Made by a program: the position numbers and the translations under genes. The notes beneath the pieces were generated by a model. The model was given only the letters and a program-made list of their open reading frames with translations, was not told the origin of the DNA and did not search any database. DNA of 26,577 bases, from positions 1 to 26,577 of the IMG/VR virus record IMGVR_UViG_3300002180_000056. One strand, written 5' to 3'. Source of the stretch: a virus (lineage: Duplodnaviria; Caudoviricetes). Shown here piece by piece: positions 15,367-26,270 of this stretch (position 1 is the first letter of the stretch; every line of letters begins with the position of its first letter).

Positions 15367-15433
15367 TTCAATATCCTCTTAGTTAATTAATTGGCTACAT
15401 TCACGGACGAGGGTAGCCGTCCCCGTTTAATGC

Positions 15434-15520
15434 TTATTGTCCATGTTTACCCTTTAATATCCTAATATGCGGAAAGTGCGGAAAGTGCGGAATGTGTGCC
15501 GCTTATTACCGCTGTTATAG
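15434..15520 (+). other. Array-proximal attI-like / degenerate attC site, copy 1
   Basis: Near-identical to 22975-23052; ends in core GTTATAG (15514-15520); three TGCGGAA(A/T)G direct repeats; inverted repeat TAATATGCGG/CCGCTTATTA. Confidence 0.65.
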
Positions 15521-15739
15521 GTCAGCGCTCATATAAAACGTGTGTTTCATCGCTGCGCCGTACCCTATGTGAGCCATAATGTCGCCAGGCATAAACCACT
15601 CACAAATCCATCCCTTATATTGATACTGGTAAGAAGGCGAGTAGTATATGTATTTAGGTTCTTGATGGTGTTCTTCACAGTATTTATCCCACGCTTTTTG
15701 CGCAGATCCGTTCTTTCTTGGTCTTTCAAAATACTCCAT
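15515..15739 (-). CDS. Cassette A1 ORF, hypothetical
   Basis: 74 aa; TAA stop lies in the core site GTTA. Confidence 0.75.
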   Translation of the reverse strand: MEYFERPRKNGSAQKAWDKYCEEHHQEPKYIYYSPSYQYQYKGWICEWFMPGDIMAHIGYGAAMKHTFYMSADL

Positions 15740-15746
15740 AAGTCAC

Positions 15747-15808
15747 CTATAACAAGGGCGCTGAAATTCGACTCCGCTACGCTGCGCGATTTAGCTGAAG
15801 CGTTAGCT
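15747..15808 (+). repeat. attC site A1 (62 bp)
   Basis: CTATAAC...GTTAGCT imperfect palindrome; three differences from 23859-23919 between the cores. Confidence 0.9.
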
Positions 15809-16003
15809 GTCTAAAAGCGCCTTCAAGTAATAGATAGGAACCATATCAATCATGCCGTCACTTATACGAACAAATATTGCACATGTTCTTGAATCCCCTC
15901 CTTTCGTGTAGCCATCAATATATCCGGCATCAAACTCCTTCAGCTCAGTTTGATGTATATCCCTAGTTAATTGCGCTATGGTTTTTCCTTTTGGTATTTT
16001 CAT
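15803..16003 (-). CDS. Cassette A2 ORF, hypothetical (66 aa, start revised)
   Basis: ATG at 16003 preceded by GGAGG; stop in core site. Confidence 0.7.
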   Translation of the reverse strand: MKIPKGKTIAQLTRDIHQTELKEFDAGYIDGYTKGGDSRTCAIFVRISDGMIDMVPIYYLKALLDS

Positions 16004-16018
16004 TATCGTAGCCTCCAC

Positions 16019-16077
16019 AGCTAACAAGAAATTCAAGCCGACCTCGTACCTCGGCGGTTTAATATTGGGCGTTATAA
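16019..16077 (+). repeat. attC site A2 (59 bp)
   Basis: AGCTAAC AAGAA ATTCAAGCCGAC...GCGGTTTAAT ATTGGGC GTTATAA; aadA-type 59-base-element layout with unpaired C and A on the + strand. Confidence 0.95.
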
Positions 16078-16236
16078 ATCATCATGCGCCCTATACTTCT
16101 TGGCAATAAACGCCCGTTCTACATGTATCATCACCGCCGCCCGATCCTTTGCCGGAACCTGCGTTTCGATATAGTTCCGGCGCTCTTCTCTTGATTTTAG
16201 TTTAAGGCACTGTAGCGCGTAGTGCCTCGGCCACAT
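16072..16236 (-). CDS. Small phage protein, 54 aa (not in ORF track)
   Basis: MWPRHYALQCLKLKSREERRNYIETQVPAKDRAAVMIHVERAFIAKKYRAHDDL; GGAG RBS; stop lies in the last core site of array A. Confidence 0.75.
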   Translation of the reverse strand: MWPRHYALQCLKLKSREERRNYIETQVPAKDRAAVMIHVERAFIAKKYRAHDDL

Positions 16237-16244
16237 TATCTCCA

Positions 16245-16580
16245 TCAGAATGCAATGTCGTCATCAAATTGATTTGGTGCTTGGTTTTGTTGATAGCTGC
16301 CCTGCTGCTGACCTTGCGCCGGTTGATTCTTGGTATTTTCCGAGTTCCAAAAAACATACATTTTTACAGGGCCGGTATGACCTAATGGCATAACGTCAAT
16401 TTCAACCTCTACATTTGGTGCGCTTGATCCCTGTCGAGCAGGCCATAGCGTAGCTCTGCCAACGGTCGCATATCGATTTTTCATTGCTGGCTGTCCGTTT
16501 TGCCCTGTCTGGCTGGTCTGGTACTTTTCAGCAATTACCGCTACACGGCCTTTGTCTAATGGTGCGTTGTTGTTTTGCAT
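16245..16580 (-). CDS. Putative single-stranded DNA-binding protein
   Basis: Short beta domain, Q-rich linker, acidic tail 'FDDDIAF'; near the Sak recombinase. Confidence 0.65.
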   Translation of the reverse strand: MQNNNAPLDKGRVAVIAEKYQTSQTGQNGQPAMKNRYATVGRATLWPARQGSSAPNVEVEIDVMPLGHTGPVKMYVFWNSENTKNQPAQGQQQGSYQQNQAPNQFDDDIAF

Positions 16581-17841: not shown

Positions 17842-18389
17842 TTTACTTCTTCCCCTTTTGGTTTTCGCTGCCCCCACTGAAACCGAACCATCCCAGTAGT
17901 ATCTTTTGCGGCCAGCCAGTTTAATTTGTTTTCTGTGAACTCTGAATACCAGTGCCATTCCTTCAACTTTAGGTCGTATGACTGCTTAGGCTTCTTATTG
18001 CCGTCCATGTACCATTCGTTGTCTTTTAGCTTCAACTCTATAACTGGGTAGTCGTAAAGCTCCCTACCTATACCCCAATTAAAGCAAGCCCGCTTGAATG
18101 AGTCACTAGCCAGCCCTTTAGCTGCCTCGGTATTTGATTCTGTGCCAGTATCTTCTTTCTGCACCCACTCTTTTTTTTCATCGCACCATATCGATACCAC
18201 GCAATTATGGTTGCCGTTTGTGTGCCTGCGCTGCCAGTTTGTCGGCCCTACAGCCTCATCTAAGCGTTGCTGGTCAACCCTAGCGTCTTTGTAAGCCAGT
18301 ATAACTGCGTACCCGCTCTTCTTAATCCGCTGAACTCTAAAGTCTATCTGGTTGGCTGATAGCGGATCAGTTAAGTTTTCTATTGCCAT
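17838..18389 (-). CDS. Rad52/22-family (Sak-like) single-strand annealing protein
   Basis: 'LAYKDARVDQQRLD..VGP.NWQ', 'KGLASDSFKRACFNWGIGRELYDYP'. Confidence 0.9.
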   Translation of the reverse strand: MAIENLTDPLSANQIDFRVQRIKKSGYAVILAYKDARVDQQRLDEAVGPTNWQRRHTNGNHNCVVSIWCDEKKEWVQKEDTGTESNTEAAKGLASDSFKRACFNWGIGRELYDYPVIELKLKDNEWYMDGNKKPKQSYDLKLKEWHWYSEFTENKLNWLAAKDTTGMVRFQWGQRKPKGEEVK

Positions 18390-19191
18390 TGTAAAGTTCC
18401 GTTATTGTCTTTTGCGTTTTTCTTTGTTCGGCCTCGTACTGGTGGCTGTATCCATCGTTGTACGGTTTAGATTTTTCGGTATGCGGTATCCCGTCTTTGC
18501 AATCCCTTATGCCTTGTAGATAATCCTCTAGATCGCTCATTTGTAATGCCCTTTTTTCGTCTTTTTTGATTAAACCGTTGGTGGTGTGCTCTAAATTATT
18601 ATCAATCACATATTGATCGTAGGCTTTTGCTGCTTCTAGCTTATCTTTATGCCGACCAAGATAGATGGTCTTGCTATTTACAGTGATTTCTGCTTTCCAC
18701 TTGCTGCTTGACTTGTCAAAAAAAACCCCGCGATATCCGCTGGTGTTGGTTGCAATCAATATCCTTTTGTTTCGCTGTTGAACAGATTGCGTTGTAAACC
18801 TGCAATTATCAGGATCGTAATTTCCGTCATTGTTGATTCGATCAATTGTTAGGTCGTCGTTGTAGCCGTTAGATTCAGCCCATCCACGAAACGCTGCGAA
18901 ATCATACCATTCATCACAAATCTTGATTCCACGCCCTCCGTGGCTTTTATAAGACCGATGGTTTTCATTGTTGCAGCGCTGCTTAATGTTACTCCATGTT
19001 TTATACAGTCGTGTTCCGACCCCGCCGTGGGTGATGTTGACACACGACTTACATGATTCCGATATAAGCCCGCTATGAATCCTAACCTCGCAGCTTGTCG
19101 TGCAAACCGGACAGAGGAAAAGGCCATACCTAGACTTTTGCTTAGATGTCGCGGTTGCATATCGCATGTCTAGCTTTTTGATTAGTTGCAT
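18367..19191 (-). CDS. HNH-AP2 homing endonuclease, in frame with a 57 aa downstream ORF
   Basis: 'GGRGIKICDEW', 'LTIDRINNDGNY.P.NCR', AP2-type 'NTSGYRGV...W.A.I....YLG.....EAAKAYD'. Confidence 0.88.
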   Translation of the reverse strand: MQLIKKLDMRYATATSKQKSRYGLFLCPVCTTSCEVRIHSGLISESCKSCVNITHGGVGTRLYKTWSNIKQRCNNENHRSYKSHGGRGIKICDEWYDFAAFRGWAESNGYNDDLTIDRINNDGNYDPDNCRFTTQSVQQRNKRILIATNTSGYRGVFFDKSSSKWKAEITVNSKTIYLGRHKDKLEAAKAYDQYVIDNNLEHTTNGLIKKDEKRALQMSDLEDYLQGIRDCKDGIPHTEKSKPYNDGYSHQYEAEQRKTQKTITELYNGNRKLN

Positions 19192-21553: not shown

Positions 21554-21713
21554 TAATCACCTCCACATCGTCCTTAAAGATGATATTGATATGTCCCGCT
21601 GGCTCCCTAGCCCAAAAAAACTCACTGCATTCCCTTTCTACTTCAACGGTTTTACCAAGCATCTTGGCGTACCACGTATGATTGTACTTGCTCTTTTTTA
21701 TTCGTACTTTCAC
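21543..21713 (-). CDS. Hypothetical protein, 56 aa (not in ORF track)
   Basis: GTG start overlapping the HNH stop; MKVRIKKSKYNHTWYAKMLGK...WAREPAGHINIIFKDD. Confidence 0.65.
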   Translation of the reverse strand: MKVRIKKSKYNHTWYAKMLGKTVEVERECSEFFWAREPAGHINIIFKDDVEVINEN

Positions 21714-22375
21714 AGTCTATCCAAAGAATTAATTAATCCGTTTGTAGTGTGCTCTAGGTTATTGTCGATGACGTAAGCGTCATAGGTTTTGGCGGCTTCT
21801 AGGGCTTTCTCAAAATAGCCGATATGGATCACCTTGCTATCAACACTGATTTGAACGCGCCATTTATTTTGTGGCTTGTCAAAGCTTACTCCGCGATAAC
21901 CGCTTGTATTATTAGCCCTTAATCGCCTAGTGTTTCTGGATTGAACCGACTGCGTGGTAAGCCTGCAATTGCCTGGGCAGTAGTCACCATCGTTATCAAT
22001 ACGATCAATTTTAAGGTTGTCTAAATAACCATTAGCTAAAGACCAGTCACGGAACAGGTCGAAATTGATCCATTCATCACAAACTTTTATTCCACGACCG
22101 CCATAACAACTATAATCAGAGTTGTTTACGTTGTTGCATCGTTGATTCATACCCTTCCATATTTTATATAACCTAGTGCCAGTTCCTCCGTGTTTTGAGA
22201 AACGCTTACCAGTAGCAATCGCAGCGCACGGCTTGCATGATTTCGCTCTAAGCCCACTATGAATAACAACTTCCACGCTTGTCGTGCAATCTGAGCAAAG
22301 AAATAAACCATAACGACGCTTTTGCGCGCTTAATTCTGTCGGGAAACGCATGTCGAGCTTTTTGATTAATTGCAT
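21710..22375 (-). CDS. HNH-AP2 homing endonuclease
   Basis: 'YGGRGIKVCDEW', 'IDRIDNDGDY.PGNCR', 'NNTSGYRGV'; paralogue of 18367-19191. Confidence 0.9.
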   Translation of the reverse strand: MQLIKKLDMRFPTELSAQKRRYGLFLCSDCTTSVEVVIHSGLRAKSCKPCAAIATGKRFSKHGGTGTRLYKIWKGMNQRCNNVNNSDYSCYGGRGIKVCDEWINFDLFRDWSLANGYLDNLKIDRIDNDGDYCPGNCRLTTQSVQSRNTRRLRANNTSGYRGVSFDKPQNKWRVQISVDSKVIHIGYFEKALEAAKTYDAYVIDNNLEHTTNGLINSLDRL

Positions 22376-22483: not shown

Positions 22484-22960
22484 CTATTCAGCATCAGAAA
22501 ACGCTCGAAGCGCGATTCTCACCCCTTTGCTGCGATTCCCTTTGCCAATCTCTGTCGCTAGTTTAGCGTCACTATCCGCCATGATGATGTTGTGGGGGAA
22601 CATTGCATCACCCCTATTCAATACCGGCTTGTGCTTCTTGGCTGTTACTTTACGCTGGAAAACTTCCGTAATGTAATTTTCTATATATTCTTTAAGCGTA
22701 CCATGCTTTAGCTTTTTCATCTCAACTCTAGGCTTAAATACAAAGCCATCGAAGTCAGGGTATTGATGCTTGTTGGCTTCAATGTAATTGTTTAGATACC
22801 CCTCAAGAAACTCAATTACCTCTACAGCAGTGGCCCTGTCGTAAATAGGATATTTACCTTCTGTATTGGCTAGGTACGCCATCACTCTATAATCCAGCTT
22901 GATGCCGGTCTCTTTCTCAAACTGCCTTTTGAAGTCAGGCATTGCTTCATGTTTCATCAT
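22484..22960 (-). CDS. Hypothetical protein, possible C-terminal DNA-binding module
   Basis: 158 aa; basic stretch followed by 'LATEIGKGNRSKGVRIAL' (ribbon-helix-helix-like, inference). Confidence 0.55.
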   Translation of the reverse strand: MMKHEAMPDFKRQFEKETGIKLDYRVMAYLANTEGKYPIYDRATAVEVIEFLEGYLNNYIEANKHQYPDFDGFVFKPRVEMKKLKHGTLKEYIENYITEVFQRKVTAKKHKPVLNRGDAMFPHNIIMADSDAKLATEIGKGNRSKGVRIALRAFSDAE

Positions 22961-22974
22961 TCTGTATTACCTCG

Positions 22975-23052
22975 TTATTTTCCATGTTTTGGCTTTAATA
23001 TCCTAATATGCGGAAAGTGCGGAATGTGTGCCGCTTATTACCGCTGTTATAT
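22975..23052 (+). other. Array-proximal attI-like / degenerate attC site, copy 2
   Basis: Matches 15434-15520 apart from 4 substitutions at the left end, one fewer 9 bp repeat and the last core base; ends GTTATAT (23046-23052). Confidence 0.65.
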
Positions 23053-23463
23053 GGCTGCCACTCCTAATAATCCAGCGCCTAAACTACCGAAACCTTGACG
23101 CATCGTTGTGTTCATTGTTGCCGCCTGTCTTTGCAATTCTACTAGCCTCCTTTGCTCTGAAAAAACATCATAATTAACAGCTGGGCCATCCTTTATTATG
23201 CCAACCCCTTTCATGGCATTTACTAGTAAATCGGCCTCGGTCTGCTCTCTAACCATATTCTTTAATTTGTTGCGTTCTGTTTCTATTTTGCAAGCCGCTT
23301 CTTTTATCCTGTCCACCTCTTTGTCTAAAACGGCTACGCGATCAAGTAAATCAGCATTATTGCCATTAGCATCGTTTATTTGTTCACTTAGCTCATCGTT
23401 ACTTTTTGTTAGCCGTTTTACCTCAGCTTTAATCTCTCTCTTTCCTTTAAAATACATAATCAT
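23047..23463 (-). CDS. Cassette B1 ORF, coiled-coil protein
   Basis: 138 aa; stop in core site. Confidence 0.75.
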   Translation of the reverse strand: MIMYFKGKREIKAEVKRLTKSNDELSEQINDANGNNADLLDRVAVLDKEVDRIKEAACKIETERNKLKNMVREQTEADLLVNAMKGVGIIKDGPAVNYDVFSEQRRLVELQRQAATMNTTMRQGFGSLGAGLLGVAAI

Positions 23464-23471
23464 ATCCCGCC

Positions 23472-23534
23472 ATATAACAAGGTGTTGAAAAATGGACGGG
23501 CAAAAGCGCCCGCCTTTTAACTTAAGCGTTATAC
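23472..23534 (+). repeat. attC site B1 (63 bp)
   Basis: ATATAAC...GGACGGGCAAAAGCGCCCGCC...GTTATAC. Confidence 0.9.
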
Positions 23535-23834
23535 GGCTTCGCCGCAGTATGAAACAGAAAGCCCACTACTACCCTCAACCTTGCATTGTGCATCATTGAA
23601 TAGTGTTGTTATGTCTGTGCTTTTTGGTACTGCGTCATACCAGTAAGGGCTGAACGGTGGTCGCCATCGATCCCGATCGATAACAATTGGACAAGAGGGG
23701 ATATGAGTTTCTTTAACACCAAACAGCGAATCAAGCTGCTCGTACAGCTCCCTGGCTTCGGTAATGGTCAGCTCAACCTCATTGCCGCTTTTGGTTTCCA
23801 GTGCGATCTTTGTTAGTTTAAGTTTCTTGCTCAT
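23529..23834 (-). CDS. Cassette B2 ORF, hypothetical (101 aa, start revised)
   Basis: MSKKLKLTK... with GGAG RBS; the longer ORF-track start runs through the attC into the next cassette. Confidence 0.75.
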   Translation of the reverse strand: MSKKLKLTKIALETKSGNEVELTITEARELYEQLDSLFGVKETHIPSCPIVIDRDRWRPPFSPYWYDAVPKSTDITTLFNDAQCKVEGSSGLSVSYCGEAV

Positions 23835-23858
23835 TTTCGTGTCTCCAAGTTTTGCGCC

Positions 23859-23919
23859 GTATAACAAGGCGCTAAAATTCGACTCCGCTACGCTGCGCGA
23901 TTTAGCTAAAGCGTTATAT
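23859..23919 (+). repeat. attC site B2 (61 bp)
   Basis: GTATAAC...GTTATAT; near-duplicate of attC A1. Confidence 0.9.
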
Positions 23920-24135
23920 GGCTTCAATTTGCACATTTTTAGCCCATGATGTACCGTCAATAGCCATTGAAGTTATGAAATATAAATTACTATCTACGTG
24001 TAAAATTATCTCTTCTTTATCGGTTCCTGCATTAAGTATTTGCTCTGCGTTATAAGAAATGCGTTCGCCTTCGTAAGTGACTTTCAGCTTGTCGCCTTCT
24101 TTAATCTGTCCTGCATATAACAAGTCATTCAACAT
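23914..24135 (-). CDS. Cassette B3 ORF, hypothetical
   Basis: 73 aa; ATG and GAGG RBS lie inside attC B3. Confidence 0.75.
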   Translation of the reverse strand: MLNDLLYAGQIKEGDKLKVTYEGERISYNAEQILNAGTDKEEIILHVDSNLYFITSMAIDGTSWAKNVQIEAI

Positions 24136-24187
24136 CGCTCGTTCCTCGCTTGGACGGCTTCGCCGCCAGTTAATTAAGGCGTTATAT
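24115..24187 (+). repeat. attC site B3 (73 bp)
   Basis: ATATAAC AAGTC ATTCAAC...GTTAAT TAAGGC GTTATAT. Confidence 0.9.
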
Positions 24188-24412
24188 TGCCTTGCTGCCT
24201 AGCCAGTTATTTTTTAGCCCCAAGTACCAGCTATACGTATAAAATATTGTTAACATTAAAATACCCCACTGCTCTGCGGTATACGCTGAATAAAACCAAA
24301 ACGGCTGGCCCGCCAACCCAAACAAGCAGGCATATTTTTTCCACGCCTCCTTGCTTTGCTGTGTAAGCCAAATTGCCAAACCTCCGGTTATTGCTATTGC
24401 TAGTTGCTCCAA
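24182..24412 (-). CDS. Cassette B4 ORF, small 3-TM membrane protein (PnuC/SemiSWEET-like half transporter, tentative)
   Basis: 'FGLAGQPFWFY......QWGI', three hydrophobic segments; TTG start with AAGGAG. Confidence 0.6.
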   Translation of the reverse strand: MEQLAIAITGGLAIWLTQQSKEAWKKYACLFGLAGQPFWFYSAYTAEQWGILMLTIFYTYSWYLGLKNNWLGSKAI

Positions 24413-24430
24413 AACCTTCTCCTTAATTTA

Positions 24431-24490
24431 ATATAACAAGGTTCATCAAGCCGATTCGCTACACTCACGGCTTATTAACGGGCGTTAGGC
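24431..24490 (+). repeat. attC site B4 (60 bp)
   Basis: ATATAAC...ATCAAGCCG...CGGCTTAT...GTTAGGC. Confidence 0.9.
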
Positions 24491-24616
24491 GCCTAAAAAT
24501 AGGCCGATATTCAATCCAGCAATAATCCCGTTAATAGCGTCAATGGGGCTGCCACCAAAACCGGCTAATGCTAAATAGGCAAAAACAACACCAACACCCA
24601 AGTTTAAAAACTTCAT
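24485..24616 (-). CDS. Cassette B5 ORF, 43 aa hydrophobic peptide (not in ORF track)
   Basis: MKFLNLGVGVVFAYLALAGFGGSPIDAINGIIAGLNIGLFLGA; GAGG RBS; stop in core site. Confidence 0.75.
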   Translation of the reverse strand: MKFLNLGVGVVFAYLALAGFGGSPIDAINGIIAGLNIGLFLGA

Positions 24617-24638
24617 TTTTTACCTCATGCGCCGTAGC

Positions 24639-24698
24639 GCCTAACAAGAAATTCAAGCCGACCTCGCAAGCTCGGCGGTTTAATATTGGGCGTTATGT
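24639..24698 (+). repeat. attC site B5 (60 bp)
   Basis: GCCTAAC...GTTATGT; identical to attC A2 between the cores except at the apical loop. Confidence 0.95.
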
Positions 24699-25028
24699 TG
24701 CTTTAATCATAAAGCGCGGCTTTTCACATAAAGCGTTTATATTCACTAGCTGCTTCAATAGGTGCGCTCTCACCGGATCTTCGTGGTATTGCCTTTCCGC
24801 CTTTCTAATCTCGTTAGGGCTTGGTTCAATATTCCACCCACACTCAAATAATTCAGCCTTAATTTTTTTCAGCAAAAAAGCCTCATACTCACGTAGCATT
24901 GCTTCTGCTTGTTCAATTAATAGTCTATGCTCCGGTTCAACGTATGGTGGCAACATAACAAGGCGTTCGTTCAGACCTGCTACTGCGTCGGTTTTTTCTG
25001 GTTCGGCGGTTTGCTTATCTTCTTTCAT
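24693..25028 (-). CDS. Cassette B6 ORF, hypothetical
   Basis: 111 aa; start and GAGG RBS inside long attC B6. Confidence 0.7.
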   Translation of the reverse strand: MKEDKQTAEPEKTDAVAGLNERLVMLPPYVEPEHRLLIEQAEAMLREYEAFLLKKIKAELFECGWNIEPSPNEIRKAERQYHEDPVRAHLLKQLVNINALCEKPRFMIKAT

Positions 25029-25080
25029 TTTCCAAAATCCTCATGTAATTTCCGCAGGCTGCACAACTAAAGCGTTATGC
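24953..25080 (+). repeat. attC site B6 (128 bp, long variable terminal region)
   Basis: ACATAAC AAGGC GTT(C)GTTCAG(A)CCTGC...GCAGGCTGCACAAC TAAAGC GTTATGC. Confidence 0.85.
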
Positions 25081-25383
25081 GCCAATAGCGCCAATTTTAT
25101 CAATGTAATATTGGACTCTTTCAGTTGTTAAATAACCAACAACAGAATCACCGCTATCTTCTTCATCAATAAATTTTTCATCACTAGGCATTATTTCAAA
25201 CAACCCCTCATCACCACCATAGGAATATTGTCCTCTTATAATACTTAATGAATGCCCGTTTTTAAAATACACTCTGGCTCTAGCCATGCCATTAATTGGG
25301 TCGCTGACATCATCCACATGGTCAATAGTGTCTACGCATAACAATGCGTTTAACTCGGATTCGTCACTCTTCGCTTCGCTCAT
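25075..25383 (-). CDS. Cassette B7 ORF, conserved phage-type hypothetical protein
   Basis: 'F.NG..LSII.G.YSYGGDEGLFEI....V.GYLT'; start inside attC B7. Confidence 0.75.
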   Translation of the reverse strand: MSEAKSDESELNALLCVDTIDHVDDVSDPINGMARARVYFKNGHSLSIIRGQYSYGGDEGLFEIMPSDEKFIDEEDSGDSVVGYLTTERVQYYIDKIGAIGA

Positions 25384-25416
25384 TATTCCTCTCCGGTTAA
25401 CTAAATTGCGTTATAT
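25336..25416 (+). repeat. attC site B7 (81 bp)
   Basis: GCATAAC AATGC GTTTAACTCGG...CCGGTTAAC TAAATTGC GTTATAT. Confidence 0.85.
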
Positions 25417-25418
25417 GG

Positions 25419-25619
25419 CTAAATTATTTCCCTACTCTTCAGCGCAATAATATCTTCAGTTGTAAAACCTGCATCCTTCAGCTTTACAATTCCTTCCACT
25501 CCTTTGCCGTTTTGTGCTTTTGTTTCGTGTTGCTCTAGTCCAGGCCAGATGCAAATCATAATGCCGTTGTTGTCTGTAATAGCCCCTGTAGATTGCTCAT
25601 AATTTAGTTCAATTTTCAT
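25419..25619 (-). CDS. Cassette B8 ORF, paralogue of 21036-21236
   Basis: 66 aa; AAGGAG RBS. Confidence 0.75.
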   Translation of the reverse strand: MKIELNYEQSTGAITDNNGIMICIWPGLEQHETKAQNGKGVEGIVKLKDAGFTTEDIIALKSREII

Positions 25620-25640
25620 TCCTGTTTCTCCTTAATCGCC

Positions 25641-25702
25641 TTATAACAAGGCGTTCAAAATCCGACCGCAAAAAGCGCGACGGTTTAACTAAAGCGTTAA
25701 AC
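25641..25702 (+). repeat. attC site B8 (62 bp)
   Basis: TTATAAC AAGGC GTTCAAA...GGTTTAAC TAAAGC GTTAAAC. Confidence 0.9.
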
Positions 25703-26203
25703 ATTACGTTCTAAATAAACTCCGCGATCGCTCATCCGCCCCAAAGCTTCCGAGCATTCATTTCCGAATGCGAACATCACGGTACCGGCAGCACTTCGGC
25801 TTTGTTTGTGCTGGTTTTCTTTGCCTGGTATGAACTGGATCCGCCCTCCTAGAAATAGCATAGATGCGCATGATTTCATTGCCTCCTGGCACCAGGCTGC
25901 GTCTGTCCGGCTAAATACGAGAGCTACCCCGTTACCATGCGCTATCATTCTGCGGATCCAAAAAGGCGTCTCTTTGCCATACGGCGGATTAAGCCATACC
26001 CGACCGAGCCACTCTTTGCTAAGCCCATCATCAAACACAGTGAGCTTGGTTTTAGCTGGTACCGCCGTCTCCATATCGTGTGGTGATGATGGATCCAGAT
26101 CGAAAGTTATCGCCAACTCTTCAAAAATCCATGCAGGCGTGTACCACTCCGCGCTCTTGTGAGTATTTTTAGCTGCTGATTTATTTGTAAAAAGTCCGTC
26201 CAT
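25697..26203 (-). CDS. Cassette B9 ORF, phage-type DNA N6-adenine methyltransferase
   Basis: 'EWYTP', 'FDLDP', 'DDGL...W.GRVWLNPPYG', 'SRTD..W', 'GRIQF'. Confidence 0.9.
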   Translation of the reverse strand: MDGLFTNKSAAKNTHKSAEWYTPAWIFEELAITFDLDPSSPHDMETAVPAKTKLTVFDDGLSKEWLGRVWLNPPYGKETPFWIRRMIAHGNGVALVFSRTDAAWCQEAMKSCASMLFLGGRIQFIPGKENQHKQSRSAAGTVMFAFGNECSEALGRMSDRGVYLERNV

Positions 26204-26215
26204 TCGTCACCAAAT

Positions 26216-26270
26216 GTTTAACAAGTCGTCAATCGGACGGCTACGCCGCCGCTTACTTTAGGCGTTACTC
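26216..26270 (+). repeat. attC site B9 (55 bp), last of array
   Basis: GTTTAAC AAGTC GT(C)AATCGG(A)CGGC TAC GCCGCCGCTTAC TTTAGGC GTTACTC. Confidence 0.9.

Follow-up and report, generated by a model that had tools for sequence, protein, structure and literature searches.

What is the element that stands twice in this stretch at the head of a gene-cassette array, in a phage record with no recognizable integron integrase? The window (the entire 26,577-nucleotide stretch that we analyzed) is part of a circularly permuted virus record of 39,596 bases that is rated 100% complete (hereafter G001), and the only public sequencing run that contains it is a marine metagenome, which is probably the source of the record. 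The early genes of G001 are of lambdoid type (Cro-type HTH, replication protein, Lar, Erf-like, Gam-like and NinG), and the complete record has no match to the PF00589, TIGR02249 or PF00239 profiles. Using a purpose-made scanner rather than IntegronFinder, we called three attC arrays, each confined to one strand, with two sites in array A, nine (including one half site) in array B and three in array C. Having at least two attC sites and no integron integrase nearby, these arrays are CALINs. The initial annotation had proposed that the element at the head of arrays A and B is either a dedicated primary insertion site, equivalent to attI, or a fixed degenerate attC that seeds arrays.

Both arrays in the window lie on the plus strand. 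Array A comprises cassette 1 (15515..15802; 74-aa antisense ORF; attC at 15747-15808, with an inverse core that is complementary to the head core along 9 nt) and cassette 2 (15803..16071; attC at 16019-16077). Array B opens with cassette 1 (23047..23528; 138-aa antisense ORF; attC at 23472-23534; 10-nt footprint with the head core) and continues with cassettes 2-9 (23529..26264), whose attC sites are at 23859-23919, 24115-24187, 24431-24490 and 24639-24698 (cassettes 2-5) and at 24953-25080, a half site ending at 25416, 25641-25702 and 26216-26270 (cassettes 6-9). The downstream attC sites are canonical. Relative to the attC top strand, the cassette genes run antisense, and for 20 of the 26 cassettes listed the stop of the longest antisense ORF falls within the complement of the GTTA upstream. 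Site B7 (25389-25416) is the right half of an attC only, and the 102-aa cassette gene that precedes it may therefore be fixed.

Cassette B9 encodes a Dam-type methyltransferase (25697-26203) whose named homologs are taxonomically mixed, and the first cassette of array C (L003 9388-9771, outside the window) encodes a Tad2-like anti-Thoeris protein (PF11195, E = 1e-22); the remaining cassette proteins mostly lack a Pfam match. Near-identical attC sites recur with different cassette genes, both within and between genomes (15757-15812 with 23868-23923, 16021-16075 with 24641-24696, and 24115-24187 with L003 9982-10054). In five of six arrays, the complement of GTTA also holds the stop of the gene that follows the last attC (16072-16245, 26265 onward and L003 10318 onward in G001), which suggests lost attC sites or insertion into stop codons. 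The window also contains two related HNH endonuclease genes (18367-19191 and 21710-22375, minus), approximately 75% identical in parts.

The head site occupies 15434..15519 on the plus strand (copy 1, 86 nt, three 9-bp repeat units, crossover between G15514 and T15515) and 22975..23051, also on the plus strand (copy 2, 77 nt, two units, crossover between G23046 and T23047). As first reported, the two are near-identical (73 of 77 bases the same and four mismatched, with a single 9-bp indel), and their match breaks off within GTTATA, beyond which, as on the left, the flanks are dissimilar. A 33-nt segment occurs twice in the window, compared with an expectation of 0.00 over 100 shuffles. A third copy lies outside the window (L003 9329-9390), in the opposite orientation and with one repeat unit, where it heads the third array, of three cassettes; the rightmost 24 bases are identical in all three copies, and the left arm of copy 3 has drifted.

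The internal features that had been described from the letters can all be found in the sequence. On the plus strand of copy 1, these are an R''-like box, CTTTAAT, which ends in AAT rather than AAC (15452..15458); the L''-like left arm of an inverted repeat, without an extrahelical base (15463..15472), which is complementary to 15499-15508 at nine of ten positions; the three tandem 9-bp units (15468..15494, starting at 15468, 15477 and 15486, with the two units of copy 2 starting at 23009 and 23018); and a right half like a simple site (15501..15520), composed of an L-like heptamer, a 6-bp spacer and a GTTRRRY-type core, which resembles attC B9 (GCCGCTTA-N8-GTTA).

A scan of metagenome contigs with the left half of the site returned six matches, two in the record itself and four in further contigs (L097-L100), where the copies head attC arrays of six, two, one and at least seven sites, respectively; because the search used the left half, the conserved left arm of these four is given by construction. 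The seven copies thus lie on five contigs, whose names indicate only two assemblies, which limits the independence of the copies, and counts over the seven arrays rest on curated coordinates, as automatic chaining labels some missed attC sites as heads. The copies occupy four gene contexts, across which approximately 60 bp are conserved: L099 matches copy 2 in context and L100 matches copy 3, L097 is close to NinG, as copy 1 is, yet behind a different small gene, and the context of L098 is new. The L-like heptamer is present in all seven heads, separated from the core by 6 bp in four copies and 5 bp in three. In L097, the head context on the NinG side is joined to the context of array C of G001 that contains the tail gene and cro, as if the early region had flipped between two inverted heads or arrays.

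Other collections returned few leads. Four patterns found no copy beyond G001 in the viral contig collection, and a covariance model of the site gave no convincing match beyond its seven training copies in 96 + 21 sources (best, 18 bits; E = 0.26). No match to the site was obtained in the phage and plasmid sets; what they yielded was one short cassette-gene match, to a Vibrio phage. A search of 185,579 genomes found neither the site (one strict exact pattern) nor one phage attC (exact pattern). A search anchored on the neighboring genes returned only the record itself, so no empty site was seen. Two weak hints were left uncounted: one read-assembly contig of depth 2.2 that links a one-unit head variant to the eighth cassette of array B, and several contigs from the sequencing run that carry the left half of the site with other flanks.

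Are cassettes inserted at this site? In G001, it heads three of three arrays, a count that is free of search bias and would be expected in 1 of 680 cases if three sites fell randomly among the 17 site positions. All seven copies head attC arrays, the genes upstream of them are phage backbone genes, and the seven first cassettes differ, with a mean identity of 27% among the copies over the 30 nt after GTTA. The two pairs matched for context (copy 2 and L099; copy 3 and L100) carry different first cassettes. The covariance model of the seven copies, which these match by construction, matched none of 30 downstream sites (1.34 Mb searched), its sole other match being a weak reverse self-match.

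When a cassette is inserted as a circle, its start complements its own inverse core. Over the seven heads, the bases past G|TT complement the inverse core of the first cassette at 35 of 42 informative positions; mismatched pairs average 2.21 of 6, and 0 of 100,000 random pairings reached 35 of 42. Footprint runs at the seven heads measure 9, 10, 11, 8, 4, 6 and 12 nt and are thus weak at two of them (4 and 6 nt). The observations that had been named as contrary to an insertion site, homologues without cassettes or an invariant neighboring gene, were made at none of the seven copies. Cassettes also move: a 99% identical copy of cassette B3 sits in another array, in L100. No array pairs with common distal cassettes were found. 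Together, these comparisons argue that the repeat is a real, reused cassette-insertion site, in agreement with the proposal of a dedicated primary insertion site or an array-seeding attC.

We therefore read the repeat as a fixed array-head site, joined at G|TT, and as probably a phage-owned equivalent of attI that is recombined in double-stranded form by a host IntI, a reading to which we assign a probability of roughly 0.6. With attI it has in common its leading place in the array (seven of seven) and the G|TT crossover (35 of 42 footprint positions). There is no adjacent cognate intI, the complete record being free of PF00589 and TIGR02249 matches, and no Pc promoter in the sense direction: the genes are antisense, and copies 1 and 2 have no sigma-70 consensus match. 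Accessory direct repeats of the attI1 type, which are not universal among attI sites, are also lacking. The site is not an attG either, which would be a GWT alone without common flanks, as approximately 60 bp are conserved here. By definition the site is not an attI, because there is no intI gene beside the site or anywhere in the record.

One part of the initial annotation, the comparison of the 9-bp repeats with the direct repeats of attI1, has to be given up. The two and three units in the window are the product of local slippage and are not DR1 and DR2 of attI1, because five of the seven copies have a single unit. Marine attI sites mostly lack direct repeats of the attI1 type (PMC3146285).

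A fixed degenerate attC that recombines as a folded single strand (attC × attC, in phage replication) would equally anchor the arrays, and both readings make the site the loading site of the arrays; we consider this second reading unlikely. It is favored by the layout, in which the four boxes are spaced as in an attC (left box, 5 bp, arm, short loop, complementary arm, 5-6 bp, core), with complementary L''/L' arms and a right-hand GTTRRRY core, and by a right heptamer-plus-one that is the same as that of attC B4. Three further observations speak for it and against use as double-stranded DNA: the palindrome, which a double-stranded attI would not need, is retained in seven of seven copies (93.8% of cells paired), a spacer of either 5 or 6 bp is more typical of attC, and L098-L100 fold moderately, with a bottom-strand core-pairing probability of 0.22-0.30 (computed with a looser constraint than the published pfold). 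Furthermore, attC sites without extrahelical bases recombine with attI1 at a rate that is reduced just 6.2-fold (PMC2727003), and real attC sites with a very low folding probability exist (PMC5371416).

Two hallmarks of attC are nevertheless missing from all seven heads: the R'' box has AAT where AAC would stand, and the extrahelical base is found in 0 of 7, compared with 27 of 29 intact array attC sites. The site closes no mobile cassette and is never internal to an array (0 of 30 downstream matches) and, by eye, no upstream cassette start complements the left box. Among 14 possible pairs, none has changed at both positions, and such changes as occur break or weaken the pairing, although this absence of covariation is also uninformative in that 11 of the 14 pairs never vary. 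On the same core-pairing measure, the copies of G001 score 0.011, 0.008 and 0.0007 and L097 scores 0.03, compared with a median of 0.78 for array attC sites (n = 29). The G001 copies thus barely fold, yet they bear footprints of 9-11 nt, and the repeat expansions that spoil the fold occur in copies with footprints of 9-10 nt. Overall, the evidence leans toward a double-stranded substrate.

We favor a double-stranded, attI-like right half of attC ancestry because of the loss of AAC and of the extrahelical base, the absence of covariation and the poor folding in G001. The working simple site would be the right half, consisting of the L-like heptamer, 5-6 bp and the core, and the whole site would have been derived from an attC by those two losses. 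When one site lacks extrahelical bases, attC × attC recombination falls 130-490-fold and attC × attI recombination approximately 6-fold (6.2-fold; PMC2727003); because the first loss far exceeds the second, such a site would be a poor excision partner, and an attC disabled in this way would be a stable loading point. A host IntI would be the enzyme, since the sites downstream have the canonical attC hairpin form, extrahelical base included; a Xer-like enzyme of the host may be an alternative partner. Because the cassette genes oppose the attC direction, a loaded cassette would be sense to the phage operon and would need no Pc promoter. Seeding of new arrays would occur when non-site-specific recombination copies the site, together with the first codons of a neighboring gene, to further gene boundaries.

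On its left side, the similarity extends as far as a start codon on the minus strand; in the five copies with a single unit, this codon lies 54-55 nt from the core. An intact phage gene of 73-77 aa, whose product has no Pfam match, begins with it in two of the seven copies (copy 3 and L100); in the other five it opens stubs of 5-22 aa, some of which overlap the start of the next gene. In copy 1, a 5-aa stub (15427..15444, minus strand) would be a gene-start remnant that travels with the site; in copy 2, a 12-aa stub (22947..22985, minus strand) overlaps the start of a 158-aa gene (22484-22960). We infer that the site originally lay ahead of the 73-77-aa gene and that copies of it, with the first codons of this gene attached, ended up at other boundaries between genes.

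This start codon, at a fixed distance in seven of seven copies and with several stubs that overlap the next gene's start, could also belong to a phage regulatory element (an mRNA hairpin or a palindromic operator plus a translation start) beside a GTT that served once as an attG-type target, with the head position arising as a founder effect of copied blocks. An attG requires only GWT (10.1101/2022.09.11.507474), a palindrome conserved without covariation is operator-like, and tail genes that stop in the complement of GTTA, in five of the six arrays checked, are what secondary-site insertion into stop codons would give. We regard this account as quite improbable, however, as seven differing first cassettes with footprints require repeated use of the core, the distance from heptamer to core matches that of att sites, Rfam gives no family at E ≤ 1 over the site, and an unrelated phage repeats a head of its own that contains a textbook simple site. 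Copies 1 and 2 have no match to a sigma-70 promoter or an intrinsic terminator, defined by a GC-rich stem and a U tract after it, and are not among the 16 matches of the scan; a promoter or terminator repeat was rejected for the window.

Least probable is a captured host chromosomal attI that was later duplicated, with the minus-strand start codon marking where intI would begin: prophage M16-3 of Shewanella, in which a host-type attI heads both an integron and a CALIN (PMC9892861), offers a precedent and the start codon faces away from the array as intI does, but the one strict pattern had no exact match in the 185,579 genomes, nor was there one in phages or plasmids, and the intact frame encodes the 73-77-aa phage protein, with no Pfam match, rather than an integrase.

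The unrelated phage is a 34.5-kb record (G002), 81% complete, with four arrays, two per strand, and no integrase match. Each array is headed by a second repeated site, unrelated in sequence to that of G001 (L102 3720-3810, 5510-5600, 11133-11225 and 14650-14740). The simple site within these heads resembles attI; three of the heads also have a direct repeat upstream, and one shows the exact layout of inverse core, 5 bp and core. More broadly, a scan with a single attC motif identified 23 viral loci, 21 of them outside G001. A tyrosine recombinase was present in only 1 of 20 records searched, far from the array and with a score far below the integron-integrase cut-off, and the longer ORF was antisense in 48 of 57 rows from 12 records, duplicates and some false calls included. 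The heads of L118, L111 and L127 have a similar heptamer-N6-GTTA and no left arm that we could see by eye. Head sites are therefore lineage-specific, and the G001 family is one of several.

Several side observations complete this survey. Among L110-L132 are many viral contigs in which attC arrays hold antisense genes and an integron integrase is missing; several of these contigs have half sites at the head, and L111 and L127 have one head in common. L103 (9113-11784) and L059 represent an AT-rich phage group with variant attC-like sites.

Phage CALINs have so far been read as pieces acquired from bacterial integrons (PMC9892861). If a docking site recurs within a phage, serves different cassettes and is missing from the bacterial genomes searched, the arrays would instead be a system that the phage maintains with an enzyme borrowed from the host, and a host reservoir of anti-phage functions would become a tool for exchanging counter-defense genes. 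The attG preprint suggests that attI originated from genomic hotspots (10.1101/2022.09.11.507474), and the G001 site suggests another route, one that starts from a disabled attC. We propose only tentatively, and with less than even confidence, that integrase-less phages have built integron platforms of their own: lineage-specific docking sites (in G001, an attC converted to an attI-equivalent; in the other lineage, a textbook simple site) would have been copied to several operon positions, where a borrowed host IntI would load reversed accessory and counter-defense cassettes, such as the Tad2-like protein and the Dam methylase, into phage transcripts, with inverted copies also flipping the early region. 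A search restricted to the open literature turned up no description of a docking site that is specific to a phage, repeated and unaccompanied by an integrase, and the available text of PMC13676570 and bioRxiv 2022.02.06.479319 contains nothing on phage head sites.

Judged from its sequence, the site lies outside both classes of integron recombination site, lacking the adjacent integrase of attI and two hallmarks of attC, and likely works like attI. With attI sites (attI1, whose anatomy is described in PMC4792948, and the marine families of PMC3146285) it shares its leading place in the array, the G|TT crossover and a variable first cassette, and possibly a degenerate L-like box 5-6 bp from the core. 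It differs from them in that intI is missing both beside it and from the record, in its three copies per genome, its variable spacer, its palindromic, attC-like left arm, and the antisense cassette genes, to which the logic of a Pc promoter does not apply. With attC it shares the spacing of the four boxes, the complementary L arms and the right-hand GTT core, whereas AAT in place of AAC, the missing extrahelical base, poor folding in G001, a near-invariant sequence and a position that is never internal and closes no cassette set it apart.

The closest published parallels are the phage CALINs and prophage M16-3, which likewise combine integrase-less attC arrays in phages with methyltransferase cassettes; the attC sites of phage CALINs recombine with attI1, and in M16-3 an attI heads two arrays (PMC9892861). 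M16-3, unlike G001, is a cryptic prophage; it possesses an intI of its own, and its attI is of host type. For the CALINs of virulent phages, a dedicated head site is not described in the available text of that report (PMC9892861). The G001 site is, by comparison, specific to a phage lineage, and its cassette genes are reversed. Insertion at attG resembles that proposed for G001 in that cassettes enter double-stranded targets far from intI (10.1101/2022.09.11.507474), but attG is a GWT motif only, whereas the site of G001 is a conserved element of approximately 60 bp that is both repeated and reused.
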